Positions 6,470 through 22,642 of a stretch of DNA of 24,251 nucleotides are shown in pieces; position 1 is the first letter of the stretch, and the number at the start of each line of letters is the position of its first letter. Under the pieces are notes generated by a model. That model worked only from the letters and a program-made list of their open reading frames with translations. It was not told the DNA's origin and made no database searches. A program made the position numbers and the translations under genes. Origin of the DNA: Pirellulaceae bacterium (GTDB lineage Bacteria > Planctomycetota > Planctomycetia > Pirellulales > Pirellulaceae); assembly GCA_024102795.1 (NCBI GenBank), contig JAGFJK010000232.1:1-24251 (forward strand). The letters are read 5' to 3'.

Positions 6470-8056
6470 CTATCGAGCGGGCGGTGGCGATCCGGCGGCC
6501 AGCAGCGGGTCGCCCGCCGCTCGCTGCTCGGCCTCCAACTGCGTTCGCAACAGTCCGAACCGCTCGGCGTGTCGCGGATCGGCCGACAAATCGCGCAGTT
6601 CCAGCGGGTCCTGCCGCAGATCGAACATCTGGTAACGTTTGGCCTGGGGATAATGGATCAACTTCCAGCGGTCGTCGCGGATCATCCGCTGCGAGTCGCG
6701 GAAGTAGCAGAACACGTGCGCGTAGAGCGAGTCTTCCTCGCCCCGCAGTACGGGCAGCATGCTGCGCCCCTCGACCTGCCGCGGTACCTCAATGCCGCAC
6801 AACTGGCACACCGTCGGATATAGATCGCGGAGGTAGACCTGGGCGTCGCGGCGGACGCCCGCGGGCAGTCCCGAGCCGGCCAGCACCAGCGGCACGCCCA
6901 CCGTATGCTCGTACATGTTCTGCTTGCCGCGCAGCCCGTGGCTGCCGATCGCCAGGCCATGATCGGCCGTGAACACGATCAGCGTGTCTTCCAGCCGGCC
7001 CGCGTCGCGCAGGGCGTCGAAAATGCGGCCGATCTGCTGGTCCAGGTGGGCGATCACGGCGTAATACACGGCCAGCTCCGCGCGCACGTCCTCGGCCGTC
7101 CGCGGCCAAGGCCAGAGCTGTTCGTCACGGCCGCGCAAGTTGCCATGGTCGAACGGATGCTCGGCCAGAAAATTCCCCGGCAGCGGCATCCGCTCGGGCG
7201 GATACTGGTCGCGGAAGCCAGGCGGCCAGAGCAGCGGATCGTGCGGGGCCGTGAAGTTGACGTGCAGGAAGAACGGCCGCTCGCCGGGACGACGAATCAG
7301 CTCGATCGCCGCGTCGGCGAACCGTCGGCTGATGTCGGGAGTCAGTCCCACGCCGTGTGCCGGAAACAACTGGCCGTCGTCGGTCTGAAAGATCCAGCCG
7401 CGATAGCCCGTCACTTCATGTCCGTTGGCGTCCTGCCGCGGTTGCCAGAACTGGCCGCCCCCGCCCGCGTACAAACCGCGGCTCTCCTCGTAGCCTCGCA
7501 AGTTCGGGCGGCCGTCGTTGTGCCACTTGCCCACGTACCAGGTGTGGTAGCCCGCCTGCCGCATGGTGTGAGCCCAGGTGGGTAACGACGGGTCAATCTG
7601 CCGAGCGAAATCCAGCACGCCGTTGCGGAAGCCGCTGCAGCCGGACAGGATCTCCGCGCGGCTGGGTGTGCAGATCGGGTTGGGGCAGACGGCACGAGTC
7701 ATCAACACGCCTCGGCGAGCCAGCGTGTCCAGGTGCGGCGTCTTGATCGGCGCCTGGTTCAGGATGCCCAGCGCATCCGGCCGCATGTCGTCGGCCACCA
7801 GCAACAGCACGTTAGGCCTCGGCCGCTGTTCGGCCAGCGCGGTTCTGGCCGCCCACGGCAGATGGGCCAGAAGTAGCCCGGCCAGCAGTGGTGCGAGGAA
7901 GCAGCGGGCGAGTGGCGTGCCGGTTGCGGTGCGCGCCGCGGGCGAGGCGGGAAGGAGGCTTGAAGAAGTGTTGGGGTGAAGCGTGCGCCGGGGCACGCTA
8001 CTTTCGCGGAGCGAAAGGCGACAATGCCGGGGCGAAAGGCGACAATGGCGCGTCAT
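6470..8056 (-). CDS. Sulfatase (formylglycine-dependent arylsulfatase family), secreted. The start codon is uncertain, and the annotated N-terminus overlaps a repeat element.
   Basis: It has the sulfatase signature [11 protein letters not shown] (C-x-P-x-R), [11 protein letters not shown] metal-binding residues, and GKWH, a signal-peptide-like hydrophobic stretch ([26 protein letters not shown]). The ATG at 8056 overlaps the upstream ABC ATPase stop as ATGA, but the first 20 or so codons translate the dispersed repeat ([12 protein letters not shown]), so the true start may lie downstream. Confidence 0.82.
7997..8050. repeat. Short dispersed palindromic repeat, direct copy plus a half-copy, preceded by the hairpin GCGTGC-GCCGGG-GCACGC
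   Basis: GCTACTTTCGCGGAGCGAAAGGCGACAATGCCG is followed by GGGCGAAAGGCGACAATGGCG. It is nearly identical to 2361-2392. It sits at the junction between the ABC ATPase and the sulfatase. Confidence 0.7.
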
Positions 8057-9150
8057 AGCGCGGCTCCTGTGTCGTTGTCGAACAGGTGAGCGTGGGTGGC
8101 GTGGAAGTGCAGCGTGAGCTGATCGCCGCGCTGGAACCGCTGGTGCGAGTCCACTCGCACAACCAGCTCATGCGCTCCGCAGACCGCGTCCAGGATCGTC
8201 TCCGCTCCCAGCGGCTGAGCCACCACGACCTGGCCCGAGGCGGAGCTCCACCCGCCTTCCCGCGCCGCGCCGTTGCCGCAGGCCATGTGTTCGGGCCGGA
8301 TCCCCAGCGTCACCCGCTTGCCGGCCCAGGGACGGTAACGCTCTTGCCGCTCGGCCGGCAGCTCCAGCGCCAGCGACTCGGTGCGGAACGTCCAGCGGTC
8401 CTGTTCCACCCGCAGCTCGCCCTCCAGAAAGTTCATCGGCGGGCTGCCGATAAACTCGGCCACGAACTTGTTTCGCGGTGCGTCGTAGACTTCGAGCGGC
8501 CGGCCCACCTGTTGAATCCGGCCCTGGTGCATGACCACGATGCGGTGCCCCATCATCATCGCCTCGGTCTGGTCGTGCGTCACATGGATGCTGGTCGTCT
8601 GCAGCCGCTGGTGCAGCTTGACCAGTTCGGTCCGCATGGTCACTCGCAGCCGGGCGTCGAGGTTGCTGAGCGGTTCGTCGAACAGGAACACGGCCGGATC
8701 GCGGACAATGGCCCGCCCGACCGCGACCCGCTGCCGTTCGCCGCCGGACAGTTGCGCCGGTTTGCGGTGCAGCAGGCCCTCGATACCCAGGATGGCCGCC
8801 GCCGCCCGCACGCGCTGGTCGATCTGGGCGCGCGGGACGCGCCGCATCCTCAGGCCGAACGCCATGTTCTTGTAGACGTTCATGTGCGGATACAAAGCGT
8901 AGTTCTGAAAGACCATGGCGATGTTGCGGTGGCGGGGCGCGACATGGTTCACGACCTGCGGCCCGATCTGGATGGTGCCGCCGTCCAGATCCTCGAGCCC
9001 CGCGATCAGCCGCAGCGTGGTCGATTTTCCGCAGCCCGAAGGTCCGACCAGCACCAGCAGTTCGCCGTCCTCGACGCGCAAGCTCATGTCCTCGACCGCC
9101 GTCGTTTGACCATACCGCTTGGTGACGTTCTGCAGCGTGACTTCCGCCAT
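8053..9150 (-). CDS. ABC transporter ATP-binding protein of the MalK/UgpC type with a C-terminal TOBE-like domain. It is an orphan, with no permease or solute-binding protein adjacent.
   Basis: An ATG at 9150 starts [14 protein letters not shown]. Walker A (GPSGCGKST), ABC signature ([10 protein letters not shown]), Walker B ([11 protein letters not shown]) and H-loop (THD) are present. The 712-aa track ORF extends it artificially across the plus-strand PilT gene. Confidence 0.85.
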
Positions 9151-9336
9151 CGGCAACTGCTGGTTTCCGAGATGTTCTGGCAGGTCGCGGCCGTTTCCGC
9201 CAACTCGGCCCCTGCGCCCGCGGCCGCCCCAATGTAACATAGAGCCTGGCCCACAACCGCTACCCTTGACCAGCTCCGGCGCGGTCGGCCCGTGCCCCCC
9301 CTGCCCCGCGGAGACTCGACGCGAGATGAGTGAACG

Positions 9337-10413
9337 ATGAGCGGACAAACCGTCGCAACAACCGAACCGGTTCCCGACCGGTTGCGGCAGTGGTTGGCCG
9401 CGGCCGTGCGGCAGGAGGCGTCGGACCTGCACCTGGTGCCGCATTATCCGCCCATGCTGCGGGTCCACGGCCTGCTGGTGCCGATCGAGGAGGCCGAACT
9501 GCCCGCGGACGAGGTGACTCGGCTGCTGGCGGCCGTCTGCTCGCCGCGCAACCAGCAGCGGTTCGAGAGCCAGAAGAACATCGACTTCTCGCTGGACGTG
9601 GAGTTGCCCGGCGGCCGGCGGCGGTTCCGCGCCAACTACTTTCTCAGCGGCGGGCAACCTGGCGCCTGTTTCCGAGTCATCCCCGACTCGATTCCCAGTT
9701 TCGACTGGGCCGGCTTTCCCTGGGAGGTGGCCGAACGCCTGGCCCACTTCCGCAATGGCCTGGTGCTGGTGTCCGGCGTGGCCGGCTCCGGCAAGACCAC
9801 CACGCTGGCCATGATCATCCACCTGCTCAACCAGGAAGGCGGCTACCGGATCATCACCGTGGAGGAGCCGGTCGAGTATCTGTTTCCTCGCATGCCGGGC
9901 TCGCTGGTCACCCAGCGCGAAGTGGGCGAGGATGTGGCCTCGTTCGCCGATGGTCTCAAGTACGGGCTCCGCCAGGATCCCGACGTGATCCTGGTGGGCG
10001 AGATCCGCGACCAGGAAACCGCGCAAATGGCGCTCAGCGCGGCCGAGACGGGACACCTGGTCTTCGCCACCTTGCACACGCGCGACGCCAAGGGCGCCAT
10101 CTCCCGCTACGCCGACGTGTTCCCTCAGCACGTCCAGGCCGATGTCCGGGCCCAGTTGGCGCTCAGCCTGCGGGCGGTGATCAGCCAGCACCTGCTGCCG
10201 GGCATCCGGCCGGGCGAGAAGCGCGAGCTGGCGCTGGAAATCCTCTACAACACGGCCCCGATTGCCAGCGGCATTCGTCTGGGCAAGCTGGAGTCGATCG
10301 ACAACAACATCCTGACCGGCCGCGCTCAGGGCATGATCACGCTGGCCGAATCCGTCAAGCGGCTGCTGGCCGCCGGGCGGATCACGCGAGCCACGGCCGA
10401 ACGCTTCGACTGA
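9337..10413 (+). CDS. pilT: Type IV pilus retraction ATPase PilT-family protein (twitching-motility ATPase family). It is an orphan.
   Basis: The 358-aa ORF has Walker A (GVAGSGKTT), Asp box/Walker B ([10 protein letters not shown]), a His box (ATLHT) and a PilT N-terminal domain (LHL...PMLRVHG). No other pilus genes are in the window. Confidence 0.8.
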
Positions 10414-10443
10414 AACAAGAGACGAGGGTTATCGTCCGGGAAT

Positions 10444-10998
10444 TCACCCCGGCTGCCTTGTCGCGAGCCACTTCAAGAGCTGTTCCACGGTGGCCACGTC
10501 GGCCGAATGCTGGCCGCGGAGGGCCTGGCGGACCACGCCCGAAGTGTCGACCAGGAAGGCGCCCTGCAGTTGCCGCACGTCGCCGACCGGCAGCCCAGCG
10601 CCGCCGCGGACCAGCGCTCGCATGGCCGGCGCCCAGACCCGCAAGCCCGCCACCTGGCTGACCCCGGCCAGCGGAATCTGCCAGGCCTGGTAAGCGATCC
10701 GCTGGGGATCGGCCAGGCACGAGCACGGCAGTTTCAACCGCTGGCGAAAGTCGGCCGCTTGAGCTGGACTGCCCATGGTGACCGCCACCACCTGGCCGCC
10801 CGCCGCTTGAATCCGCTGGTAAGCGTCCCGCACGTCGACCACGTGCTCGCGGCACAGCGGTCACCCGAAGTGCCGGACGAACAACAGCACGGTCGGCCGC
10901 TGGCGCCAGAAATCGGAGAGTTGCACCGTTGTGCCCGTGTCATCGGTCAGGGTAACGTCCGGCGCATCCTCGCCCGGCTGGGGATGAGCGACAGGCAT
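10444..10998 (-). CDS. Peroxiredoxin-like (AhpC/TSA or PRXL2-type redoxin) protein with an in-frame TGA at 10861-10863 in place of the first Cys of the CxxC motif. It is a candidate selenoprotein (UxxC), or alternatively a pseudogene.
   Basis: An ATG at 10998 starts MPVAHPQPGEDAPDVTLTDDTGTTVQLSDFWRQRPTVLLFVRHFG-[TGA]-PLCREHVVDVRDAYQRIQAAG... and the frame continues unchanged into the 132-aa track ORF (10444-10842). The redoxin family motif is FxRHFGCxxCR, so the TGA sits exactly at the catalytic Cys position. A hairpin (GCACG-UGGUCGA-CGUGC) lies about 12 nt downstream of the UGA. Confidence 0.55.
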
Positions 10999-11076
10999 GA
11001 GCGGACTCCTTCCTGAGTTCTCGGCGGCAGGAAAAGGCGGCCTGGACGGCGCCGCTTTGAGCGTCGGTCTTGGTGG

Positions 11077-11082
11077 ATTATA
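11077..11082 (-). promoter_or_regulatory. Perfect TATAAT hexamer (minus strand) about 80 nt upstream of the peroxiredoxin-like gene start. It is a possible -10 element.
   Basis: The minus strand reads ...GCGCGCCGGGCTATAATCCACCAAG... within the 148-bp gap between the giant gene stop (11147) and the prx-like ATG (10998). There is no convincing TTGACA at -35. An AT-only hexamer is rare in a sequence with this GC content. Confidence 0.2.
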
Positions 11083-11146
11083 GCCCGGCGCGCGACCGAG
11101 GGGAGCACACGCGCGGCACGCACGACAAGGCAGTGGCGCCGGCCAA

Positions 11147-14100
11147 CTACGACTGCTGGTGGGTACCGGTTCCGGCCTGGGTCCGCGTGCCGGGCTGCCG
11201 CTGGCTGGCGCCCTCCAGGTCGCCGATCAGCACGCGGTAGCTCGCCAGGCACTGCTCCAGCGACTCGCGCAACTGCCGGATATCGGACTGCTGTTGCTGG
11301 GACGCGGACAGCAGCGGCTGCAGCCAGGACTGCATCAGTTCGAACTGGCTGTGCATCACGTCCAGGATGGAGCGGGGCACTTTGTGCATGACCGAGATGC
11401 GCTGCAAGGGGCGATTCGTGTCGACCGGGACCGCTCCGGTGGTGAGCGCCCGCAGCTCCTCGCTCAGCTTCAGCATGGCGTCGGCGGCCAGCGCCGCGGC
11501 CCCGTGCGACGGGTCGTGCGAGTTCCCGTCCGCGGGCCGCTCGGCGACGGCCGCCGACAGCGCCTGGCCGATCGACTGCAGTCCTTCGCGGACCGCACCG
11601 ACATTGTCGACCAGTTCTCGCAGTTGCTGCTGCTGTTGCTGTTCGGTCGCGCCGCGGTCCCCGGCCAGCGCGGTGATGCCATCCGAGAGCGTCTGGCGGA
11701 GATGGTGCAGGCCATCGCTGAACGAACTGAGCTGGGCCACGACCAGGCCGACCTTATCGTCCGGGGCCACGCCCCGCAGCTTGACGTTCTGCTGGAACGT
11801 GCGGCAGATCTCCTCCCAGCGGCGGGCCTCGGCCGGACTGAGCAGCCCCAGCATTTCCTTCAGCTTCAGCAGATTCGACTCGGTGTCCGAAGTCAGCGTC
11901 TGGGCGTCGTTTTCATAGCTGGAGAGGATGAGCGTTTCCAGTTCCTGGTCATTCATGATCGGCACGACCCGCTCGGCGATGCGGTTCATGTTGCGGTACG
12001 AGCCCTGCAGCTTGAACGGCGGTTCGGTCCGGTAGTCGTCGGACTGGGCGGCCGAGCGGATGTACTGGCGGTTGACCCGCAGGATGACGTCCCGCACGCG
12101 GAGCAGCTTTTTCATCGTGGCGACCATCTCGTCGAGTTCCTCGAGCGAGTAGTTGCCTTCCAGTTCGATCCCCTCGCGGGCATCGCGCTGGGCCATTTTG
12201 ATCACGGCATAGACGTCCTGCTGGCTGCGGCTGGCCAGCTTGTTCAGGACCGGGTTGCTGGTCAGGGCGTTCTCCAGATAACTCAGCTCGAACGCCTCGG
12301 CCGTGTCGCCGATGATTTCCCCCAGGTTGTAGACGTCGGCCCGGTTCGAGAGCATGTCGGGAATCTGGAACCGCTGCCCGCTTTCGGTGTAGGGGTTGCC
12401 GGCCATCACCACCACCACCTTCCGACCTCGCAGGTCGTAGGTCCGCGTGTGGCCCTTGTACACGCCTTCGATCTTCCGCTGGGCATCGCAAAGTGAAATG
12501 AACTTCTGCAGCAGTTCGGCGTTGCAGTGCTGGATGTCATCCAGGTAGATCATCACGTTGTCGCCCATCTCGAAAGCCAGGTTCAGCTTCTCGACCTCCT
12601 CGCGGGCCGCCGCGTTGGGCGCCTCGGCCGGATCGAGCGACGTCAGCCGGTGCCCCAGGGCCGGGCCGTTGATCTTCATGAAGATGATGCCCAGGCGATT
12701 GGCAATGTATTCCATCAGGGTCGTCTTGCCGTAGCCCGGCGGCGAGACCACCAGCAGCAGGCCCATCAAATCGGTCCGCTTCTGTTCGCCGACCACGCCG
12801 ATCTGCTTGGCCAGGTTGTCGCCGATCAGCGGCAGGTAGACCGAGTCGATCAGCCGGTTGCGGACGAACGAGGTCAGCACGCGGGGCCGGAACTCCTCCA
12901 GGCGCATGTCGGCGCGGGCCTGTTCGAGCAGTTGCTTCTTGAGCTGCACGGACTGCTGGAAGCGGGGAACCACCTGGGTGGCGAACGCGTGGAGCTTGCG
13001 GAGGAATTGGTTGTAATGCAGCCGGTAGCGCCCGCTTTCGATGACCTGGTGGACGCCGGCCAGTCCGGTCAACTCCCGCTCGGCGTGCCCCTCGACAATC
13101 AGCGCCGGATCGAACTTGCCGCGCAGCAGCAGCAACGCCAGTTCATCGGCGAATTCGCCGCGCTGGCCGGCCGACTGGCCGGCGGGTTGACTGGCCGATT
13201 GGCCGGCGGACTGGCCCGCCGCCTGTTGCTGGATGAAGGCCCGCGCCCAGTCGCGCAGCAGCACGAAACGTCCCCGCGCGTCGCCCTGCACGGCGGCCAG
13301 CGACTGCTGGAAGTGGGCGGAGTAGTTGTTCACCCTCAGGTGACGCTCGAACGCCTCGCACAGTTCGGCGGCCGTCCGGCTGACGACAAAATCCTGGCGG
13401 CCGCTGAGTTCGAGGAACAGGTATTCGGCCGCTTCCTCCACCAGGTCATCCGGGAACAGTTCCCAGCGGAGGCAGAAATCCCGCAGCAGCTCGCCGAGTT
13501 CCGCCACGTAGTGCGCCCGCTCGGTGGCTTGCGGGAACAGCCGGGCGACGGTGCCGGCTCCGCGGAGCTTGTCGGCCCAGGTGCCGCGACGGTCCGGGTC
13601 CACGAACAGCAGCCAGCCGCAGACGGCCAGGGCCCGGGCCCGCGTGTCGAAGCGCAACAGGCCCAGCTCGGACTGCATTTCCAGCAGGGCCGTGAGGATC
13701 TTCGCGGCGTCCTGGTCGCTGACGCCCTTGACGTACGATTCGTCGTAGCGGGGCGCCATGAACTGCTGCACCAGGGCCAGCCGATCCTCGGCCGCCAAAC
13801 GCAGCACGCGCTCCTGCTCGGCCGGCGGTTGCGCTCGCAGTTGTTCGAACAGCAGCCAGGCCAGGTATTCGCCGCGATAGACTTGCCGGTTCTCGCTGAC
13901 CAGCAGTTGATCCCAAACCTCGCGCGTGGCCAACAGCCGCTCGTCCCGAATCGGCTCGAAGAACCGCGTGCCGGTCAGGTGCAGGCACAATTGATCCTCG
14001 TGCAGGACGCACGTCAGATCCAGGGCCTGGACGTTGACCGAGAAATTGTGGCGGCCCAGGCGGATCACGTTCTCGCCGCCGACGAACAGCTCGCGGCGGT

Positions 14101-16627
14101 CCTTCAACTGGCGGACGGCATCCTCGCGGATCGTCTTCAGCCGGCTCTGGATGTCGTCCACCTTGACCGAATCGTCCAGTTCCTGCAGTTGCCGCACGAG
14201 ATCCCGGACCTTGTCGATCATCAGGTCGGCGGCGAAGTAGGCGTGAATCTCGTTGACGGTCTGCAGTTGATCGACGCGGGACTTGATGCCCTTGAGGATC
14301 CGATCGGCCGCTCCGCTCAGCGCCGCGGCCCGCCGGTTACGGGCCTCCACCAGTTGCAGCTTGCGGGTTTCAAACGCCGCGTAGACTTCCTCCCGCTTGT
14401 CGGTCAACTGCCCGACAAACTCGTCGAATTCCGCGAACCGCCCTTCCAGCTCCTCGATCTGCACCATCAGCCTGGTGAGGAACTCCTCGCACTTCTCCGC
14501 CGTGTCGGCGATGTCCAGGTAGTTGACGACGGCCTGGCCGAGCAGTTTCAGTTGCGAGGTGAATTCGGCGACCCCTTCCACCGCCAGCAGCTCGCGGATC
14601 TTGGTCTTCAGTGCCGCGCGGGCCACGTTGACCTGCGAGAAGATCGTGGAGATGTTGTCGATGATCCGCGTCCGCTGCGTGGCGTCGTCGATCTTCAGAT
14701 TGCCGACCACGTCGATCAACATTTCCAGTTCGCCGGCCGACTGCTGCACCTGCTCCTCCAGCGCCCGAGCGTCGGTGACCTTCTTCAGGCCCTCGACCGC
14801 CTGCTGCTGGTCCGCCACGCGACGCGCGTAGGGTGCCAGGGCATCGTCGCGCAGCAGGAAAGCCACGCAGCGGCGGGCGAGCTGGTCGGACTGCTGGACC
14901 ACCTGCTGCTCCAGGTGCTCGATGCGGGCCGTGTCGGCGTAGCGCAGGTCCCGCAGCGCGACGATCTCGCCGCGGGATTGCCGCAGGCGGCCCAGCGCGG
15001 CGACGAACTCCAGGATCTGCTCGAACCGCTGGCGGTGGATCGCGGCCAGGTTGCTGGCCGTCTCCTGCTCGATACGCGCCATCTGGCTGGCCGTGTTCTG
15101 CTTGACGCGGACGACCTTCTCGAACTCGTTGACGGCCGACGCGGCGGCCTCCTTGATCTGTTGCAGCACCTCCTTCAGCTGGAACGTTTCGGGTTTGTCC
15201 AGCCAGAAATACGAGTCGATGATGTCCTGCGACAGCTTGACCAGGTCGACGTACAGGTCGGCGTAGGTGTCTTCCTTGTCGATCAGGGCCAGCAGCTCGT
15301 GGCACTCCGCCATGCCCCGCACGATGTCGCGGTTGCCGATCTTGTAGAGCAGCGAGTCGGATTGCTGGACCGGCACGTAGCTTTCGCCGACGTAAGGAGT
15401 GCGCCAGATCTGGATGGCGTGGTGCTTCTGCGGCTCCTCGTGGCGTTTGAAGCAAGTCAGCTCGCCGCCCTCGAACAGCGTGAAGCCGTGACAGACCAGC
15501 GGCGTGTCGACCCGCTGTTCGATCACGTTGTAGCGCAGCAGCACGTAGCTGCCTTGCTCGCGGTTGGTGAAGACGTACAGGTAGTCTTCGCCGTTGGGAG
15601 CGACGATCCGCCGTTCGAACTGCATCCCCTGCTGGTCGCTCTCGAACGTCTTGTACTGGCCGTTCTGCAGGTAGTAGCCGTTGGCGAAGATCAGTCCCTG
15701 GTCGTCCGGCAGCAGCACGCAGGCGTGGGCGATAGAATCGATGCGGCGGGCCGTGCGGGTCTTTTCGTTGTAGACGATGTGCCGGAAGTCGCGCTCCTGG
15801 TAGGGGCGGATCTTCAGCAGGATGATATGCCCGACGATGGCATAGTAGATCTCGGCATCGTCCAGCGTCTGGTCGGCATTGTCGACGTCCTCGCGGTAGA
15901 TGCCTTCGCCCGAATCGGTGTTGTTTTCGATCTTGATCGTCAGGTCGCCGCCCACGGTTTCCACGAACAGCCGGTCGCGGATCGAGATGTGGGGAAACCT
16001 GCCGGCCTGGTGGGCGTCGCGCGTGGTGCGGATCCACTCGAAGTCGTGCTGCGGCGGGTTCCGCACTTCATGATCGCTGCGGTTGTCGACGTATTCCAGC
16101 CGGTCGTCCCGCCGCAGCCACTTGAGCGCCTTGATGTCGGCGGCCGTCTTGCCCACCTGGAACACCAGGTACAGGTAGGGTCCCTGGCTGAAGAAGCGGG
16201 CGAACTGCGACGTCTTGTAGTAGCGGTAAATCTCGCGGAACTCCCGCCCGAACTGCTCGTTGCCCAGCAGGTCCAGCGACAGTTCGTGAAACGTGCCCTC
16301 GGCGAACCGATAGACCGAGAACACGTCGGCCAGCTCCGTTTCGGTCTTCAGGCCCAGGTGCACGTTGTAGCCGAACAGAAACACCTGGCCGAAGGCGACC
16401 ATGTCCCGCGGCACGCAGTTGTGCGCCGTGGTGATCCGCTCGGTGCCCAGCAGGGCCATATCGATCGAACCGAAGACCTCCTTGCGGGCGGCGTTGAGCT
16501 GCTGCAGCCGGCCGCGCAACTGGCCGGCCTGCGCCAGCAGCCGCTGGCGGATGATCTCGTAGGTTCCGCCTTCCAGCGCCGCCGCGGCGGAGCCTTCGGG
16601 CGTTTGAGGCGAGTCGGCTTGAGCCAT
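11147..16627 (-). CDS. Giant (1826 aa) uncharacterized protein with an N-terminal beta-rich region, extensive coiled coil, a MoxR/AAA_5-like AAA+ ATPase domain and a Q-rich C-terminus
   Basis: An ATG at 16627 has a GGGGAG Shine-Dalgarno-like motif 8 nt upstream and lies 16 nt after the flotillin stop. Walker A is LLVVSPPGYGKTTL (nt about 12719-12745). Walker B is VMIYLDDIQH (nt about 12535-12550). A sensor-1-like VVVMAGNP and IPDMLSNRADV resemble the MoxR-type LPEALLDRF motif. Residues 480-1000 are heptad-rich (EQ/LR-rich) coiled coil. Confidence 0.85.
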   Translation of the reverse strand: MAQADSPQTPEGSAAAALEGGTYEIIRQRLLAQAGQLRGRLQQLNAARKEVFGSIDMALLGTERITTAHNCVPRDMVAFGQVFLFGYNVHLGLKTETELADVFSVYRFAEGTFHELSLDLLGNEQFGREFREIYRYYKTSQFARFFSQGPYLYLVFQVGKTAADIKALKWLRRDDRLEYVDNRSDHEVRNPPQHDFEWIRTTRDAHQAGRFPHISIRDRLFVETVGGDLTIKIENNTDSGEGIYREDVDNADQTLDDAEIYYAIVGHIILLKIRPYQERDFRHIVYNEKTRTARRIDSIAHACVLLPDDQGLIFANGYYLQNGQYKTFESDQQGMQFERRIVAPNGEDYLYVFTNREQGSYVLLRYNVIEQRVDTPLVCHGFTLFEGGELTCFKRHEEPQKHHAIQIWRTPYVGESYVPVQQSDSLLYKIGNRDIVRGMAECHELLALIDKEDTYADLYVDLVKLSQDIIDSYFWLDKPETFQLKEVLQQIKEAAASAVNEFEKVVRVKQNTASQMARIEQETASNLAAIHRQRFEQILEFVAALGRLRQSRGEIVALRDLRYADTARIEHLEQQVVQQSDQLARRCVAFLLRDDALAPYARRVADQQQAVEGLKKVTDARALEEQVQQSAGELEMLIDVVGNLKIDDATQRTRIIDNISTIFSQVNVARAALKTKIRELLAVEGVAEFTSQLKLLGQAVVNYLDIADTAEKCEEFLTRLMVQIEELEGRFAEFDEFVGQLTDKREEVYAAFETRKLQLVEARNRRAAALSGAADRILKGIKSRVDQLQTVNEIHAYFAADLMIDKVRDLVRQLQELDDSVKVDDIQSRLKTIREDAVRQLKDRRELFVGGENVIRLGRHNFSVNVQALDLTCVLHEDQLCLHLTGTRFFEPIRDERLLATREVWDQLLVSENRQVYRGEYLAWLLFEQLRAQPPAEQERVLRLAAEDRLALVQQFMAPRYDESYVKGVSDQDAAKILTALLEMQSELGLLRFDTRARALAVCGWLLFVDPDRRGTWADKLRGAGTVARLFPQATERAHYVAELGELLRDFCLRWELFPDDLVEEAAEYLFLELSGRQDFVVSRTAAELCEAFERHLRVNNYSAHFQQSLAAVQGDARGRFVLLRDWARAFIQQQAAGQSAGQSASQPAGQSAGQRGEFADELALLLLRGKFDPALIVEGHAERELTGLAGVHQVIESGRYRLHYNQFLRKLHAFATQVVPRFQQSVQLKKQLLEQARADMRLEEFRPRVLTSFVRNRLIDSVYLPLIGDNLAKQIGVVGEQKRTDLMGLLLVVSPPGYGKTTLMEYIANRLGIIFMKINGPALGHRLTSLDPAEAPNAAAREEVEKLNLAFEMGDNVMIYLDDIQHCNAELLQKFISLCDAQRKIEGVYKGHTRTYDLRGRKVVVVMAGNPYTESGQRFQIPDMLSNRADVYNLGEIIGDTAEAFELSYLENALTSNPVLNKLASRSQQDVYAVIKMAQRDAREGIELEGNYSLEELDEMVATMKKLLRVRDVILRVNRQYIRSAAQSDDYRTEPPFKLQGSYRNMNRIAERVVPIMNDQELETLILSSYENDAQTLTSDTESNLLKLKEMLGLLSPAEARRWEEICRTFQQNVKLRGVAPDDKVGLVVAQLSSFSDGLHHLRQTLSDGITALAGDRGATEQQQQQQLRELVDNVGAVREGLQSIGQALSAAVAERPADGNSHDPSHGAAALAADAMLKLSEELRALTTGAVPVDTNRPLQRISVMHKVPRSILDVMHSQFELMQSWLQPLLSASQQQQSDIRQLRESLEQCLASYRVLIGDLEGASQRQPGTRTQAGTGTHQQS
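13163..13222. repeat. In-frame imperfect 12-nt tandem repeat (about 5 units) inside the giant CDS, encoding (A/P)GQS repeats
   Basis: The units are CTGGCCGGCCGA, CTGGCCGGCGGGTTGA, CTGGCCGATTGGCCGGCGGA and CTGGCCCGCCGC. On the minus strand they translate to QQAAGQSAGQSASQPAGQSAGQR, a low-complexity linker. Confidence 0.7.
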
Positions 16628-16643
16628 GCGGCGTACTCCCCAG

Positions 16644-18746
16644 CTACTTGGAACCGTTACCGGCCTCGGCCGGATTCAGGCGGAGCGCCGAGACGCGCTG
16701 GCCGGAGAGCCCCGAATCGGCGGCCATCCCCAGCAGCCTGGCCAGCTCATGGCGCGTCTCATCCGACCCGGTCAGCCCCATCAGCTTGGCGATCAGGGCG
16801 GCGATCGACAGGTCCTTGATGTCGTCGAAGCTGAGGTTGAACGTGCCGACCAGCTCCTGCAGCTTGTCGCGGAAGTAGTCGGGGTTGCCGTTGAAGAACG
16901 TGTTCTTGACGTCGGTCAGCACTTCGCTGTTGTGGACGAAGCGATCGACGGCCTTGCCGCCCTTGATCGAGTCGACGATCTTGTCGAAGAACGCCGTCTC
17001 GCCGCCGACGATGTCGATGCGGGCGGACTTGAGCGCCTGGCCGACGATATTCGACTGGGCCTCGGCGATCTGCCGCTGGGCGTCGATGGCGGCGATCTCG
17101 ATGTCCTTGTCCTTGTTCAGCCGCAGCTTGAACTCCTCGTGCTCCTTGCCCACGCCGTCGAACAGCTTCATGGCGTTGGCCTTTTCCTCGATGCCGGCGG
17201 CCTCGCTGTGGAACTTGAGCTGCATCACGTTGGCTTCGGCCGTGCCCTGCTTCTCGACCGCCGTGGCCTTGGCTTCCAGGCCGCGGGCCTCGGCCACCGC
17301 CTTGCGTTCCAGCACGTTGGCTTCGGCCGTGCCCTGCTTCTCGGCGGCGTCGGCCTTGGCGACCAGCACGTGCGCTTCGGCCAGTCCGCCGGCGGCCTGG
17401 TCGGCCGTCTTGGCTTCGGCCAGCATCTTGGTGGCCTGCGTCTGCTTCTCGGCCGCCTGCCGGTTGGCTTCGGCCTCGATCACCACCTGGTCGGCCAGCA
17501 GCGCGGCGGCCTGCTTGGCCGCCTCCGCCGCCTTGACTTCCTTGATCAGGGCTTCCTGGGCGGCCTTTTCGGCCAGCGTGATGGCGACCTTCTTCTGGCG
17601 GTCGGCGGTGGCGAACTGCTCGGTGTCGTAAATCCGCTGCTGCTCTTCCACCACGGCGCGTTCCACGACCACGCGTTCGCGGATCACTTCCTGGATGTTC
17701 CGGTTCTCGACTTCGATCGCCTTTTCCTTTTCGACCTGGGCCACGCCCACCAGCCGTTCCCGCTCGGTCACTTCCATCAGGCGATCCTTCTCCACCCGCT
17801 CGGTCTCGACCGCGTCGGTCCGCTGGCGGTTCTTCAAGGCCACGATGATCTGCCGGTTCTTGTTCTCCTCGGCCACGCCCACCTGCTCGTCGGTCTGGAT
17901 CCGAGCCTGCTCGGCCTTGAGCCGGTTCTCCTCCTGGACCTGGAGCGCCTGGGCCCGTTCGCGGGCCGTGATCTCGGCGATCTGCCGCTCCTGCCGCTGC
18001 ACCGCCTCGACCCGCTGCCGCTCCAGTTCCAGGATCGCCTCCTGCGCCTCGACGTCCTGCTTCTTGATGGTCTTTTCCTTCTCCCGCGTGAAGAAGTTCT
18101 CCTTGATCTTCTCGGCGGCCGTCAGCTCGGTGATCTTCTTGATCCCCTCGGCGTCCAGGATGTTGCCCGGATTGAGCAGTTCCAGGCGCGTCTGTTCCAG
18201 GTAGTCGATGGCGCAGTCGTCCAGCCGGTACCCGTTCAGGTCGACGCCGATCACCTTGATGATCTCGGCCTTGAACTGCTCGCGCTTGTCGTACAGGTCG
18301 ACGAAATCGAACCGCTTGCCGACCGTCTTCAGCGCCTCGGAGAACTTGGCGTCGAACAGCTCGACCAGCGTCCGCTCGTCCGAAGCGCGGTTGCAGCCGA
18401 TCGACTGGGCCACTTCCTTGATCTTTTCCGGCTCCTTGTCGACCCGCACGAAGAACGCCACCTTGATGTCGGCCCGGATATTGTCCCGGCAGATCAGGCC
18501 GTCGGAACCGTCCCGCTTGATCTCGATCCGCTTCAGCGTCAGATCCATCTGATCCACTCGATGGGCGATCGGAATCACCCACATCCCGGCGCCCGTGGCG
18601 ACCTGCATGTGTCCCCAGCCGGAGCGGACCAGCGCCTCTTCCGGACCGACCTTGCGGTAGAACTTCGAGAGCATCGCGCCGAAGGCGATCGCCAGGAAGA
18701 TGAAGATGCCAAAGGCAATCAGGCCGGTAACCAGGATGTCATTCAT
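16644..18746 (-). CDS. Flotillin-family SPFH/band-7 protein (YqiK/FloT-like)
   Basis: An ATG at 18746 (MNDILVTGLIAFGIFIFLAIAFGAML...) has a GAGGA motif 7 nt upstream. There is an N-terminal TM helix, an SPFH domain, then a long EA/AEA-rich flotillin coiled-coil region (...AEANVLERKAVAEARGLEAKATAVEKQGTAEANV...). The track start at 18752 is a TTG two codons upstream. Confidence 0.88.
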   Translation of the reverse strand: MNDILVTGLIAFGIFIFLAIAFGAMLSKFYRKVGPEEALVRSGWGHMQVATGAGMWVIPIAHRVDQMDLTLKRIEIKRDGSDGLICRDNIRADIKVAFFVRVDKEPEKIKEVAQSIGCNRASDERTLVELFDAKFSEALKTVGKRFDFVDLYDKREQFKAEIIKVIGVDLNGYRLDDCAIDYLEQTRLELLNPGNILDAEGIKKITELTAAEKIKENFFTREKEKTIKKQDVEAQEAILELERQRVEAVQRQERQIAEITARERAQALQVQEENRLKAEQARIQTDEQVGVAEENKNRQIIVALKNRQRTDAVETERVEKDRLMEVTERERLVGVAQVEKEKAIEVENRNIQEVIRERVVVERAVVEEQQRIYDTEQFATADRQKKVAITLAEKAAQEALIKEVKAAEAAKQAAALLADQVVIEAEANRQAAEKQTQATKMLAEAKTADQAAGGLAEAHVLVAKADAAEKQGTAEANVLERKAVAEARGLEAKATAVEKQGTAEANVMQLKFHSEAAGIEEKANAMKLFDGVGKEHEEFKLRLNKDKDIEIAAIDAQRQIAEAQSNIVGQALKSARIDIVGGETAFFDKIVDSIKGGKAVDRFVHNSEVLTDVKNTFFNGNPDYFRDKLQELVGTFNLSFDDIKDLSIAALIAKLMGLTGSDETRHELARLLGMAADSGLSGQRVSALRLNPAEAGNGSK

Positions 18747-18756
18747 GAACAAGTCC

Positions 18757-19374
18757 TCAGTTGGCTTTCGAGATCAGATACGTACGTGACTCGTGGTCGT
18801 AGTCGACGATTTCCGCGCGATCTCCTTTCGCCAGCGTCCCTGCCACCGTCCGCACATCCAGCAGCAGCGGAGCTCCATCGGTCTGGAACCGGGCTTGCCC
18901 GGATTCCGAGGTGGCCTCCCAGGTCGACACCTCGCAGTACTTTCCAATCAGGCTTTCCGCCGTGTATTCCGGCGGTTGATCAAACACGTGGATCAGGGGT
19001 TGCGTGGCCAGCTTGGTCAGCACGACACTCAAGGCCACGTTCCTCAACAGAAACTGCGAAATATGCCACCAGCCCGGTTCGTACTGGGCCTCGTCCCAGA
19101 GAAACCAGAAGAACATCGACAGCACCCACAGGATCGCGGCGAATACGCTGACCCAGACCATCAGCGGCACGCGACCCAGGTTCAGGAACCGCAGCCCCAG
19201 GAACCCGACGCTGAGCGGCGAATCGGGCTGCCCGTCCAGGTCCAGGTCGAAGTCCAGGAACTCCAGGTCCAGCGCGCCGACCAGTAACAGCAGCCAGTAG
19301 CCGACCACGAGCCCCAGCAGCAGAGTCGCGGGCAGGTTGGCTCCGGTCACGCAGTGCTGCAGATACTCGTTCAT
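18757..19374 (-). CDS. NfeD-like (YqiJ-type) membrane protein with a C-terminal OB-fold domain, the usual flotillin partner
   Basis: An ATG at 19374 starts MNEYLQHCVTGANLPATLLLGLVVGYWLLLLVGALDLEFLDFDLDLDG, with TM helices. The C-terminal EVSTWEATSESGQARFQTDGAPLLLDVRTVAGTLAKGDRAEIVDYDHESRTYLI is a beta-barrel like the NfeD C-terminus. The stop lies 10 nt before the flotillin ATG. An alternative TTG start is at 19425. Confidence 0.78.
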   Translation of the reverse strand: MNEYLQHCVTGANLPATLLLGLVVGYWLLLLVGALDLEFLDFDLDLDGQPDSPLSVGFLGLRFLNLGRVPLMVWVSVFAAILWVLSMFFWFLWDEAQYEPGWWHISQFLLRNVALSVVLTKLATQPLIHVFDQPPEYTAESLIGKYCEVSTWEATSESGQARFQTDGAPLLLDVRTVAGTLAKGDRAEIVDYDHESRTYLISKAN

Positions 19375-19556
19375 GGGGTGATCACTTTTTGTCCGTTGGA
19401 AACATATCGAATCGTACCGCGGCAACCGGCTCGGCGATTTGAATTTCCGGCCGGGGATTCTGGCGAGACTTCGGCGGTCATGCGGGCTGTGTCCGTGATC
19501 GGGTTTATGAGGATCAGGGACTTTTTCATACTTGCGACGATCCTGACGATTCGCTC

Positions 19557-19652
19557 GTGTCCTTCACCAGTGCTGCCTCGCTGACGCGTCGGGCTACATG
19601 GGTCGTGTCGTTCACCAGCGCTGCCTCCCTGGCGCGTCGGGCTACTTTCGCT
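19557..19652. repeat. 48-bp direct tandem repeat, 2 copies, related to the dispersed repeat family
   Basis: GTGTCCTTCACCAGTGCTGCCTCGCTGACGCGTCGGGCTACATGGGTC is followed by GTGTCGTTCACCAGCGCTGCCTCCCTGGCGCGTCGGGCTACTTTCGCT, about 85% identical. It contains the CTGCCTCGCT and GCTACTTTCGC motifs shared with 2245-2392 and 7997-8029. It lies upstream of the NfeD gene and overlaps the kinase 3' end. Confidence 0.75.
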
Positions 19653-21942
19653 CCGGCGGCGGCCGGATTGGTTGCTGAAAAAATCGCCGCGCCGCGGGGT
19701 GGAAGTGAAACACGGACCAGTCCGCGGCCTGTTCTCGGGGGATCAAGTCGAAGCGCGCGACCAGGTGGCCCTCGTACAGCGTTTCCAGCAATTGCCGCAC
19801 CAGCCGGTCCGACGCCTCGGCATGGACGGCCAGGAATGTAGTTGTGGCAATCGTGGCGATGTCCTGTCCCGGCACGTCGGCCGAGCCGTCCGGCGAGCGC
19901 AGGTAGCAGCCTTGGGGAATCGTGCCGGGATGGTAGGCGGCGGGATTCAGGCGGCGATCGGCGGTCACTGGCAGCAGGTCGTAGTCGCCGCTGGCCAGCA
20001 GCCGCCGGAGGTCCGCGTTCGCCGTGCCCGTCGTGACAATCGCACCATCCAGGTCCGGGTCGTGGAAGAGTTTGACGAAGTGCTGATCCGACTCGGACAA
20101 GGTCCGCGGATCGATGCCGCAGGCCTGCAGCAGCTTGATGGCCGTTTGTTGCATGCCCGAACCGGATTCGCCCAGGGCAATGCGTTTGCCGGCGAGGTCT
20201 TCCAGGCGGGCGATGCCGCGACCGCGGCGGATGACCACGTGCACGAAGTCGTCGTAGAGCGGGGCGGCGACGGCGATCGAGTCGGAGCCGACGGCGCTGG
20301 CCTGCAGCAGCGCCAGGTGGCTCTCGCCGTTGGCCAGCCGCCGGACATTGTCGACCGATCCGGCCGTGGCGATTACTTCCGCCGCCAAACCGGTCCGTCG
20401 CCGCCAGGCGTCGGCCAATGCCAGTCCAAAGTCGTGGTATTCGCCGCCCGGCACGGCGGTGGCGATCCGCACCTTGGATGGTACCTGGTAGTGGCGATAC
20501 GTGCTGCTGGCCGCCAGCCCCATGACCACCAGCAAAGGCAGCGCCAGCAAGGCCCAGTTGGCGCGCCGTTGCCAAACTGTCGGTTGATGCACCCGGCGGC
20601 CGAACAGCGCGGCGACCAGCGGAATCCGGGCGACCCACTCGACGCCGCGGCGAAAGCGGCCTGCCGGGCGAGCGGCAATCGGCTCGCCGGCCAGAAACCG
20701 CCGCAGATCGTCGGACAAGGCCGCCGCGGTCGGGTAACGTTCGGACGGCTCCTTTTTCAGACACTTCAGACAGATGGTTTCCAGGTCCGCGCTGATTCCG
20801 GACCGCAGGCTGCGCGGCGCGGGCGGGTCGTCGTGGATCACCCGCATGATCGTTTCCATGACCGTACGGCCGTAGAACGGCGGCTGCCCGGTCAGGACCG
20901 CGTACAGGACGGCTCCCATCGAATACACGTCACTGGCCGGCCCCATCTCATCATGCCGGCCCGCCGCTTGTTCGGGAGCCATGTAGCCGGGCGTTCCCAG
21001 GGCGGTGCCTGAAGCCGTCAGGCCCGTGTCCTGGTCCATCAACTTGGCCAGGCCGAAGTCGGTGACATGAGGCCGGTCGGACTTGTCGATCAAGACGTTG
21101 GCCGGCTTGAGGTCGCGGTGCAGGATCCCGCTCTCGTGGGCGTGCTGGATCGCGTCGGCGACCGTCAGCAGGTACAGCGCCGCCCGCTGATCGGTCATCC
21201 CCGGACTTCCTGCCAGCTCCGCCAACGTCGTGCCTTCGATATAGTCCATCGAGAAATAGTGGTGGCCGTCCACCTGGCCCATCTGATGGACCGTGACAAT
21301 GCTGGGGTGGCCCAGTCGCCCCGCCGCCTTCGCCTCGTTGTAGAACCGCAGCAGGTCCTCGGGCGTGGCGAACTGCCCGGCGCGAATCATCTTCACCGCC
21401 ACGACGCGGTTGATCGATCGTTGCAGAGCTTTATAAACCACGCCCATCCCGCCTTGTCCCAGCAGGCTCAGCAGCTCGTAATCGCCAAAGCGTCGCGGCT
21501 GAAAGGGCTCGTCCTGGCCGGGCGGCGACACCCCGGCTTCCGAACCGCCACGGGTGCGGGTTGCCGTCGAATCACCCGGCGCCAGCGTCTCGGCCTGGGC
21601 CAGCCGGGCGACTTCGGACGGGTCCCGCGGAACGTGCGGCAGCGTGGTCGGTACGACCGCGCTGGGGGGCGACTTGGCCCGTGGCGATCCCCCGCCCGGC
21701 CAGTCGTCGGTCGTCGCGTCCAGCGCCGCTCGCTCCGGCTCAACCGGTCCAGCCATCGCATCGACCTGGCTGGCCGTCCGCAACAATCGCAGCAGCTCAT
21801 CGGCCACCGCTGGATAGCCGCTGGCGAACCGCGTCGGTTCGGGTTGCTGGCCGGCGTCGACCAGCCCCAGGTACTCGGCCAGCGCCCGATCCAGTTCGGC
21901 TTCCCGTTGCTCCCGTTCGCCGGTTGAGGTCGTGGTATTCAA
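19642..21942 (-). CDS. Ser/Thr protein kinase with one TM helix and a C-terminal periplasmic TAXI-family (TRAP-type) solute-binding-protein-like domain
   Basis: The Hanks kinase motifs are GQGGMGVVYKA (G-loop), VAVK, HRDLKPANVL (catalytic loop), DFGLAK (DFG) and GTPGYMAPE (APE). A hydrophobic segment (WALLALPLLVVMGLAA) follows. The C-terminal 300 aa (KVRIATAVPGGEYHDFGLALADAW...GSVDNVRRLANGESHLALLQ) resemble a TAXI SBP. The predicted start is a TTG overlapping the sigma-factor stop as TTGA. Confidence 0.82.
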   Translation of the reverse strand: MNTTTSTGEREQREAELDRALAEYLGLVDAGQQPEPTRFASGYPAVADELLRLLRTASQVDAMAGPVEPERAALDATTDDWPGGGSPRAKSPPSAVVPTTLPHVPRDPSEVARLAQAETLAPGDSTATRTRGGSEAGVSPPGQDEPFQPRRFGDYELLSLLGQGGMGVVYKALQRSINRVVAVKMIRAGQFATPEDLLRFYNEAKAAGRLGHPSIVTVHQMGQVDGHHYFSMDYIEGTTLAELAGSPGMTDQRAALYLLTVADAIQHAHESGILHRDLKPANVLIDKSDRPHVTDFGLAKLMDQDTGLTASGTALGTPGYMAPEQAAGRHDEMGPASDVYSMGAVLYAVLTGQPPFYGRTVMETIMRVIHDDPPAPRSLRSGISADLETICLKCLKKEPSERYPTAAALSDDLRRFLAGEPIAARPAGRFRRGVEWVARIPLVAALFGRRVHQPTVWQRRANWALLALPLLVVMGLAASSTYRHYQVPSKVRIATAVPGGEYHDFGLALADAWRRRTGLAAEVIATAGSVDNVRRLANGESHLALLQASAVGSDSIAVAAPLYDDFVHVVIRRGRGIARLEDLAGKRIALGESGSGMQQTAIKLLQACGIDPRTLSESDQHFVKLFHDPDLDGAIVTTGTANADLRRLLASGDYDLLPVTADRRLNPAAYHPGTIPQGCYLRSPDGSADVPGQDIATIATTTFLAVHAEASDRLVRQLLETLYEGHLVARFDLIPREQAADWSVFHFHPAARRFFQQPIRPPPERK

Positions 21943-22571
21943 AGCGGCTCCTCATCCAGTATCTCGCGCAGTTTCCGCAGTCCCCGCTTGAGCAATCCCG
22001 CCACGGCCAGTTCCGAACGCTCGAGCTCCGCGGCCAGCTCGGCCAGCGTCCGCCCTTCCAGATGCCGCAGGCGAACGGCCCGGCGCTGGTCGGGCGGCAA
22101 GCCTTCCAGGGCCTGGGACAACCGGATCGCGTCTTCGCCCAGCATCACTCGGCGACTGGGCGACGATTGCGAGGCCGGCAAATCGGGCCCCAGGTTGTCA
22201 TGCGATCCGTCGCCCGGATCGATCCGCCGCTCGCGGTCCACGCTACGGCGCTGAGCGAACACGTGCTGCTGCAGCGTCTGCGACACGTTATGCCGCAGGA
22301 TTTGCCGCAGCCAGGCCACCAGTTCCGCTTCCACGCTGCCGCGGAACTGGGCCAGGTCCCGGTAGGCCTCCAGACAGGTCTGCTGGACCACATCCGAGGC
22401 GTCCGCGCGGACCCGGACCTGGGAATCCAACTCGCGTTCGGCCAGCACCCGCAGGTAGGGCCGGTAGTTGTTGAGCAGTCTGCCGAGCGCTTCCGCATCG
22501 CCCTCCCGCGCTCGGGCCAGCAGTTCGGGTACGTTGAGCGAGTCCATCGACTCTCGGCTCTCCGAGGACAT
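21939..22571 (-). CDS. ECF-type RNA polymerase sigma-70 family factor
   Basis: An ATG at 22571 starts MSSESRESMDSLNVPELLARAREGDAEALGRLLNNYRPYLRVLAERE. This is sigma-70 region 2, with the VQQTCLEAY region. Region 4 is the helix-turn-helix LSQALEGLPPDQRRAVRLRHLEGRTLAELAAELERSELAVAGLLKRGLRKLR. Confidence 0.82.
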   Translation of the reverse strand: MSSESRESMDSLNVPELLARAREGDAEALGRLLNNYRPYLRVLAERELDSQVRVRADASDVVQQTCLEAYRDLAQFRGSVEAELVAWLRQILRHNVSQTLQQHVFAQRRSVDRERRIDPGDGSHDNLGPDLPASQSSPSRRVMLGEDAIRLSQALEGLPPDQRRAVRLRHLEGRTLAELAAELERSELAVAGLLKRGLRKLREILDEEPL

Positions 22572-22642
22572 AGGGCGGCTAAGGACCGCGGCCGGGGCGC
22601 GCCGCGGCGAAAAAAGTTCGACCATTCACCCGGCCGGCGCGG

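Follow-up and report, generated by a model that had tools for sequence, protein, structure and literature searches.

Operons that combine CesT/Tir-like and PspA genes with genes for a three-transmembrane (3TM) YqiJ/YuaF protein, a flotillin and an AAA+ ATPase have been described by Ravi et al. (2024, mSystems, PMC11237479), who gave as an example Dokdonia donghaensis, anchored on PspA ANH61663.1, and who noted that abbreviated versions lacking PspA are widespread. The operon type was published as a comparative-genomics observation, in a 2020 bioRxiv preprint and then in 2024, and was treated in one paragraph, without a structure, a quantification of linkage or an experiment (PMC11237479). The YqiJ-YqiK operon of Escherichia coli and the YuaF-FloT operon of Bacillus subtilis contain homologues of the first two genes in the same order (Hinderhofer et al. 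2009, PMC2636767). Here we analysed a stretch of 24,251 nucleotides (nt) from a Pirellulaceae bacterium (contig JAGFJK010000232.1; hereafter the window, with a G+C content of 66%), in which genes for a YqiJ-like membrane protein, a flotillin and a giant soluble ATPase run head to tail along the minus strand, so that, unlike the E. coli and B. subtilis operons, the locus includes a third, ATPase gene.

The window shares the YqiJ-like, flotillin and AAA+ genes with the operon of Ravi et al. and differs from it in having no PspA or CesT/Tir gene; tblastn searches of the window with the Hymenobacter PspA and Tir proteins returned nothing below E 1, and we therefore assigned it to the abbreviated form. 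A Hymenobacter locus, which encodes a LexA-family regulator, a Tir chaperone, PspA, DUF1449, flotillin and a "DNA repair ATPase", agreed gene for gene with the published architecture. The window operon is thus a planctomycete example of a published, experimentally untouched operon type, and not, as a preliminary description of the sequence had held, an undescribed one: both the PspA-containing and the abbreviated versions are in Ravi et al. (PMC11237479). Our literature searches found no experimental study of the operon or of the ATPase family; queries for "DUF3686" and for "DNA repair ATPase" together with flotillin found no papers, and flotillin with MoxR gave nothing relevant. The ATPase is mentioned neither in the SPFH survey of Hinderhofer et al. 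2009 (PMC2636767) nor in a 2026 paper on the SPFH proteins of P. aeruginosa (PMC13086221). The three genes and their junctions are as follows.

18757..19374, minus strand: gene for a YqiJ/YuaF-type (NfeD2-like) small membrane protein; ATG at 19374, stop at 18757, 205 amino acids (aa)
18747..18756, minus strand: YqiJ-like/flotillin junction of 10 nt (ggacttgttc), read directly from the sequence; a GAGGA motif overlaps the stop codon of the YqiJ-like gene
16644..18746, minus strand: flotillin (SPFH2/YqiK-like) gene; ATG at 18746, stop at 16644, 700 aa
16628..16643, minus strand: flotillin/ATPase junction of 16 nt (ctggggagtacgccgc), read directly from the sequence; contains GGGGAG
11147..16627, minus strand: gene for the giant soluble ATPase of the DUF3686/"DNA repair ATPase" family; ATG at 16627, stop at 11147, 1826 aa

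The coordinates given for these genes in the preliminary description matched the sequence, and direct reading bore out its account of gaps of 10 and 16 nt with the motifs GAGGA and GGGGAG. For the YqiJ-like gene, an alternative TTG start at 19425 would give a protein of 222 aa. A sigma-70 promoter scan of positions 10200-19800 called no site; in the same interval terminator-like sites were not enriched, and none lay between the YqiJ-like, flotillin and ATPase genes. The whole window had no match in Rfam, and a tRNA scan found none.

To place the locus among its relatives, we scanned a genome collection holding one genome per species for two conserved motifs with confirmation by tblastn, which gave at least 593 stretches; the best 80 of these came from Planctomycetota, Desulfobacterota, Bacteroidota, Verrucomicrobiota, Kiritimatiellota and Clostridia. 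Linkage was counted in 63 related loci with at least 3.5 kb of upstream sequence. A flotillin gene lay upstream of the ATPase gene on the same strand in 60 of the 63, and a YqiJ-like gene detectable by tblastn preceded the flotillin gene in 51. The three-gene order was found in all six of the groups named above and also in Actinomycetota, Deinococcota and Gammaproteobacteria. It was kept on the chromosome of Symmachiella dynata (about 62% identity) and in distant relatives with 38-43% identity, on the Pseudomonas fluorescens megaplasmid pQBR103, a Streptomyces plasmid and a Deinococcus plasmid. PspA was present in 16 of the 63 loci, mostly in Bacteroidota and mostly together with a CesT/Tir-like gene, and was also found in locus L003. 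In one major lineage the unit lies within an envelope-stress operon of PspA, a member of the ESCRT-III superfamily. The linkage is far beyond chance, and the YqiJ-like, flotillin and ATPase genes form a conserved unit whose functional linkage is strongly supported. The co-function of these three genes that had been suggested from the window is thus supported: the case against it, that homologues never adjoin SPFH/NfeD genes, is decisively contradicted by the neighbourhoods of the homologues, in which adjacency to SPFH genes is the rule.

The distance between the flotillin and ATPase genes varied, with a median across loci of about 140 nt, so that the 16 nt of the window fall at the tight end of the range, and some genomes had 0.4-2.4 kb with unrelated small genes inserted. 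These insertions included an AbiEii toxin gene, a DMP19-like gene with DUF3997, and DUF3592 (L027:7273-7941, L022:6609-7695, L075:5862-7762, and similar loci). We considered the inserted genes as a conserved fourth component and rejected the idea, as the AbiEii, DMP19-like and assorted DUF genes varied by genome and no family recurred.

The giant ATPase belongs to a large family that is known by sequence. It matched PF12458 (DUF3686, "ATPase involved in DNA repair") with 639 bits against a cut-off of 25 (E 4e-192), residues 37-474 spanning positions 2-448 of the 448 in the profile, and PF25472 (DUF7902) with 96 bits against a cut-off of 26 (E 1.5e-27); residues 1291-1411 matched PF00004 (AAA) with 29.3 bits against a cut-off of 21.2 (E 1.3e-6). 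NCBI names such proteins "DNA repair ATPase", and JGI lists relatives as "MoxR-like ATPase". The novelty claimed for the protein in the preliminary description is therefore lost to its strong membership in PF12458 and PF25472 and to the NCBI name, and the family to which it belongs is one without an experimentally characterised role, so that a strong match to a family already characterised in some other role does not arise. More than 4700 homologues at E<1e-10 were present among the candidates scored. The family is compact: at E<=1e-30, 288 clusters (50% identity) matched the first 620 residues, and the length of complete members was uniformly 1600-1930 aa. Within the window protein, the following regions and motifs were located.

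15206..16519, minus strand: DUF3686 region, residues 37-474; N-terminal helix, then a propeller-like all-beta domain of about 26 strands
14591..14845, minus strand: DUF7902, residues 595-679; inside a long helical/coiled-coil region from residue ~426 to ~900
12188..12766, minus strand: AAA+ core, residues ~1288-1480; Walker A and B, assigned sensor-1 N1411, and R1429
12719-12745, minus strand: Walker A motif SPPGYGKTT, residues 1295-1303
12527-12553, minus strand: Walker B motif MIYLDDIQH, residues 1359-1367, with DD and not the usual DE

We modelled two parts of the protein with AlphaFold2 from 78 homologues, and both models were confident, the predicted local distance difference test (pLDDT) reaching 84.5 for residues 1-620 and 81 for residues 1180-1700. 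In the N-terminal model a long helix (residues 14-52) is followed by an all-beta domain (residues 58-409, about 26 strands) and then by long helices (residues 426-610), and the composition of residues 420-900 is helix-favouring. Foldseek searches with the beta domain retrieved beta-propellers (WD40 proteins, CyRPA, paraoxonase and prolyl oligopeptidase) at E 4e-7 to 1e-4, with TM-scores of only 0.15-0.36; because these scores are low, we term the domain propeller-like but non-canonical. No solved structure of a relative was found, and a whole-protein profile of 13 sequences run against the PDB sequences gave matches at the level of the P-loop only. The architecture first sketched for the protein was roughly right: its N-terminus is beta-rich, a long helical stretch follows, and the AAA+ module towards the C-terminus has MoxR-type ATPases as its neighbours in fold. 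The Pfam search upheld the statement that it has no recognisable protease domain. Domain searches likewise found no nuclease, helicase or DNA-binding domain in the giant ATPase, and no membrane segment was predicted.

The catalytic motifs of the AAA+ module are strictly kept. Walker A, Walker B, the assigned sensor-1 residue N1411 and R1429 (in PDMLSNRAD) were invariant across five phyla, and the Asp-Asp pair of Walker B was present in all 13 cross-phylum sequences and in all 78 close homologues. By fold, the nearest neighbours of the module were the MoxR-type ATPases NorQ and CbbQ, whereas by sequence the nearest PDB relatives of the Walker A region were the D1 domains of p97/Cdc48 (E ~5e-8); the Pfam profile AAA_5 scored 21.2 bits on the protein against a cut-off of 22.

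In the YqiJ-like protein, residues 17-35 and ~64-89 form hydrophobic segments, and the C-terminus is rich in beta structure and contains the motif G..C.V......GQA.....GAPL.LNVRT.......KG..A.V, which was kept across 22 orthologues. The Pfam YqiJ_N profile stayed below threshold on the window protein (17.1 bits against a gathering cut-off of 23) and the NfeD profile had no match to it; among the 22 orthologues, YqiJ_N matched five and NfeD two. A profile of the 22 orthologues aligned with E. coli YqiJ by hhalign with a probability of 96.7% (E 3.6e-10, 165 columns), and the match took in the membrane segments as well as the beta-rich, OB-like domain at the C-terminus. The flotillin has a single membrane segment at its N-terminus (residues 4-22), followed by an SPFH domain, a long Glu/Ala-rich helical region and a C-terminal extension. 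Its alignment with E. coli YqiK (30% identity, 462 aa, E 2e-47) extended through the coiled-coil region. On the strength of the YqiJ profile and YqiK alignment matches, we assigned the two proteins to the YqiJ-YqiK (NfeD2-SPFH2) pair in the sense of Hinderhofer et al. 2009.

At full length the flotillin had no match in Pfam or NCBIfam, even at E 10, whereas its isolated N-terminal 231 aa matched Pfam Band_7 over residues 32-174 (E 9e-14; 52.4 bits, cut-off 23.6). We suspect that the Glu/Ala-rich region trips the bias filter of HMMER and so masks Band_7, and this lack of a Pfam match to the full-length query accounts for flotillins of this type being annotated as "hypothetical protein" in the Hymenobacter and Deinococcus records. 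The C-terminal extension (residues ~590-700; window positions 16644-16980, minus strand) carries the pattern FFDKIV..GK.VDR..NS.VL.DVK.TFF.G.P..F... and is common to most ATPase-linked flotillins in several phyla, being truncated in the Pseudomonas and Deinococcus copies. E. coli YqiK, which works without such an ATPase, lacks it. The extension is a plausible candidate for a surface on which the ATPase may dock.

Pairing of an SPFH scaffold with an AAA+ enzyme has precedents in HflK/C with FtsH and in prohibitin with the m-AAA protease (PMC13086221). FtsH is membrane-anchored and has a protease domain, whereas the window ATPase is soluble and protease-free and, with its stalk and propeller-like head, much the larger of the two. 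The resemblance between HflK/C-FtsH and the window operon is one of function only. An FtsH-like protease role was rejected, as the ATPase has neither a protease (M41) domain nor a membrane anchor. A second analogy, with Vps4 and the ESCRT-III/Snf7 proteins of the PspA superfamily, was drawn for PspA-linked AAA+ ATPases by Ravi et al. (PMC11237479): there, as in the family of the window, in which PspA accompanies about a quarter of the loci (16/63), an AAA+ protein is genomically coupled to a membrane-remodelling polymer. The MIT domain of Vps4 is absent from the window ATPase, which belongs to neither the Vps4 nor the FtsH system.

We put at about even the chance that the ATPase uses ATP to remodel flotillin assemblies, and those of PspA where present, or to help them assemble, under membrane stress. 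Several lines of evidence led us to this reading: the genes stay linked in the same order across phyla (flotillin in 60 and the YqiJ-like gene in 51 of the 63 loci) and are joined in the window by junctions of only 10 and 16 nt; the PspA and CesT/Tir context recurs as Ravi et al. describe (PMC11237479); the AAA+ module, whose fold is nearest NorQ/CbbQ, keeps its Walker A Lys, its Walker B motif and its assigned sensor-1 Asn without variation; the ATPase lacks a membrane segment and protease, nuclease and DNA-binding domains; and most of the flotillins linked to it carry a C-terminal extension that YqiK does not have. The YqiJ-like protein, flotillin and giant ATPase would then constitute one membrane-associated machine, in which the first two, by analogy with solved SPFH complexes, may oligomerise into a scaffold that lies on the cytoplasmic side of the inner membrane and the soluble ATPase would serve as its dedicated ATP-driven partner. 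A ring-forming AAA+ module would sit at the end of the long helical stalk, while the propeller-like head would dock on flotillin, possibly via the C-terminal extension, and ATP would drive the assembly, disassembly or remodelling of flotillin assemblies during membrane stress. In lineages with PspA in the operon, the ESCRT-III-like assemblies of PspA may be remodelled too.

Three other explanations were weighed against the same data. NorQ/NorD, CbbQ/CbbO and RavA/ViaA act on clients as maturation chaperones, and given the NorQ/CbbQ-like fold the giant ATPase could, in a similar way, form an AAA+ ring that matures, inserts or activates a client concentrated in the flotillin microdomain. We regard this as unlikely: members of the MoxR class (NorQ, CbbQ, RavA) are ~250-500 aa long and have VWA partners, whereas the window protein has 1826 aa and no VWA/MIDAS partner was detected among the window genes or the annotated neighbours of loci L001-L006; the AAA_5 score falls short of its cut-off, the nearest PDB relatives by sequence are p97/Cdc48, and no conserved gene nearby is a candidate client. 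The patchy distribution across phyla, with copies on large plasmids (pQBR103 and plasmids of Streptomyces, Deinococcus and Hymenobacter), would fit a mobile module for conflict or defence that acts against phage or by abortive infection, with the ATPase as the sensor of infection and the membrane proteins inflicting or limiting damage to the membrane, as would the divergent LexA-family (cHTH+protease) regulator of the Bacteroidota loci, the AbiEii gene inserted in L027 and the nature of PspA as a phage-shock protein. Such a module is nevertheless improbable, because a search of PADLOC-DB 2.0 with the three proteins gave mad8 as the sole match, at E 0.086 over 28 P-loop residues, the neighbours in both chromosomal and plasmid loci were mostly metabolic or housekeeping genes and not defence islands, and the inserted genes differ from genome to genome.

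We give least credence, and very little, to the function that databases imply by naming the protein "DNA repair ATPase" or "ATPase involved in DNA repair"; in that case it would work on chromatin or DNA, and it would be linked to flotillin because a repair or segregation process is tethered to the membrane. LexA-family regulators do adjoin some Bacteroidota operons, and there are weak RuvB_N/RuvB matches confined to the P-loop, but the RuvB similarity covers ~50 residues around Walker A and scores 22.6 bits against a cut-off of 282, the domain searches found no DNA-binding, nuclease or helicase domain, the conserved neighbours all encode membrane proteins, and no paper supporting the name was found in the literature searches.

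A number of observations weigh against a role of the ATPase in remodelling flotillin. Three of the 63 loci (L020, L025 and L041) had no flotillin gene upstream, and tight coupling is not universal, since the gap often amounts to hundreds of nt or holds unrelated genes. The flotillin operons of E. coli and B. subtilis function without this ATPase. The Asp-Asp form of Walker B, in place of Asp-Glu, could indicate slow, switch-like hydrolysis and not a processive motor, and the AAA+ clade is ambiguous, the module being p97-like by sequence and MoxR-like by fold. The database label of a DNA repair ATPase also stands against it. Finally, the proposal draws on gene context, sequence and models, from which we infer that the ATPase is active, binds its partners physically and forms a ring, and likewise what its substrate is, which way remodelling runs and what stress sets it off.

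The preliminary description had placed a fourth, peroxiredoxin-like gene in the same unit. We looked for this gene in 86 other loci and, as it was absent from all of them, concluded that it is not part of the conserved module. The genes around the three-gene unit are as follows.

10444..10998, minus strand: peroxiredoxin-like (SelL-related) gene, co-directional with the giant ATPase gene and 148 nt downstream of it
8053-10191, minus strand: open reading frame of 712 aa for a MalK-like ATP-binding cassette (ABC) ATPase, downstream; the ABC domain starts at residue ~360
19642-21942, minus strand: gene for a Ser/Thr protein kinase fused to a C-terminal NMT1_3/TAXI-like solute-binding domain, directly upstream of the operon
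21939-22625: extracytoplasmic function (ECF) sigma factor gene, upstream of the kinase gene

The peroxiredoxin-like gene contains an in-frame TGA at 10861-10863, which the preliminary description does not mention, within the motif HFG-[TGA]-PLC, where it occupies the first position of the redox motif. With Cys substituted for the TGA, the 184-aa product matched NCBIfam NF040769 ("SelL-related redox protein") from end to end with 138.6 bits against a cut-off of 120, and the fragment after the TGA alone scored 78 bits. A hairpin with the loop GGUCG (GCACGU-GGUCG-ACGUGC) starts 14 nt past the TGA, and the folding energy of the region is unremarkable for its G+C content (z -0.44). Judging from these sequence features, the gene is probably an unannotated selenoprotein gene, a pseudogene or a sequencing error being less likely. 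Gene callers would split or truncate the gene at the TGA. In the 148-nt gap between the ATPase stop and the SelL-like start (10999-11146) there is a perfect TATAAT hexamer (11078-11083, minus strand), a hint of a possible separate promoter for the fourth gene; the hexamer was passed over by the consensus scan for want of an acceptable -35 element.

Upstream of the operon, a region of 267 nt between the end of the kinase gene and the start of the YqiJ-like gene holds two copies of a 43-nt direct repeat (19555-19597 and 19603-19645), 91% identical and spaced by 48 nt; nothing similar turned up in shuffled sequence. The two copies could be a small repeat element, or they could serve the operon as an operator or regulatory site. 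The kinase gene could be a regulatory neighbour of the operon; the kinase/sigma-factor arrangement is absent from the Symmachiella locus. Downstream of the operon lie ABC ATPase and sulfatase genes, and the MalK-like open reading frame either begins further downstream than its listed GTG start or encodes a protein whose N-terminus is extended by a long stretch without a detectable domain. None of the upstream kinase, the ECF sigma factor, the downstream ABC ATPase and the sulfatase is obviously related to the three-gene unit.

These results bear on how the family is named and on where it can be studied. The name "DNA repair ATPase" is probably misleading and is spreading to thousands of proteins. 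Cultured hosts of the family include Symmachiella dynata, Pseudomonas fluorescens SBW25 (pQBR103), Proteus mirabilis, Hymenobacter and Streptomyces. Single and multiple deletions of SPFH genes are often without phenotype (PMC13086221), and a conserved, dedicated ATPase partner would give a handle on the assembly, turnover and stress coupling of flotillin scaffolds. It is possible, though we put this forward tentatively and with some doubt, that in the DUF3686 ATPase we have the first AAA+ protein that lacks a protease and is dedicated to remodelling a bacterial flotillin scaffold, one whose propeller-like head would bind the C-terminal extension of flotillin and whose ring would assemble or strip flotillin polymers, and those of PspA where it occurs. 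If this were true, the dynamics of flotillin microdomains would be under the control of ATP in hundreds of species, and the "DNA repair" label of the family would be wrong.

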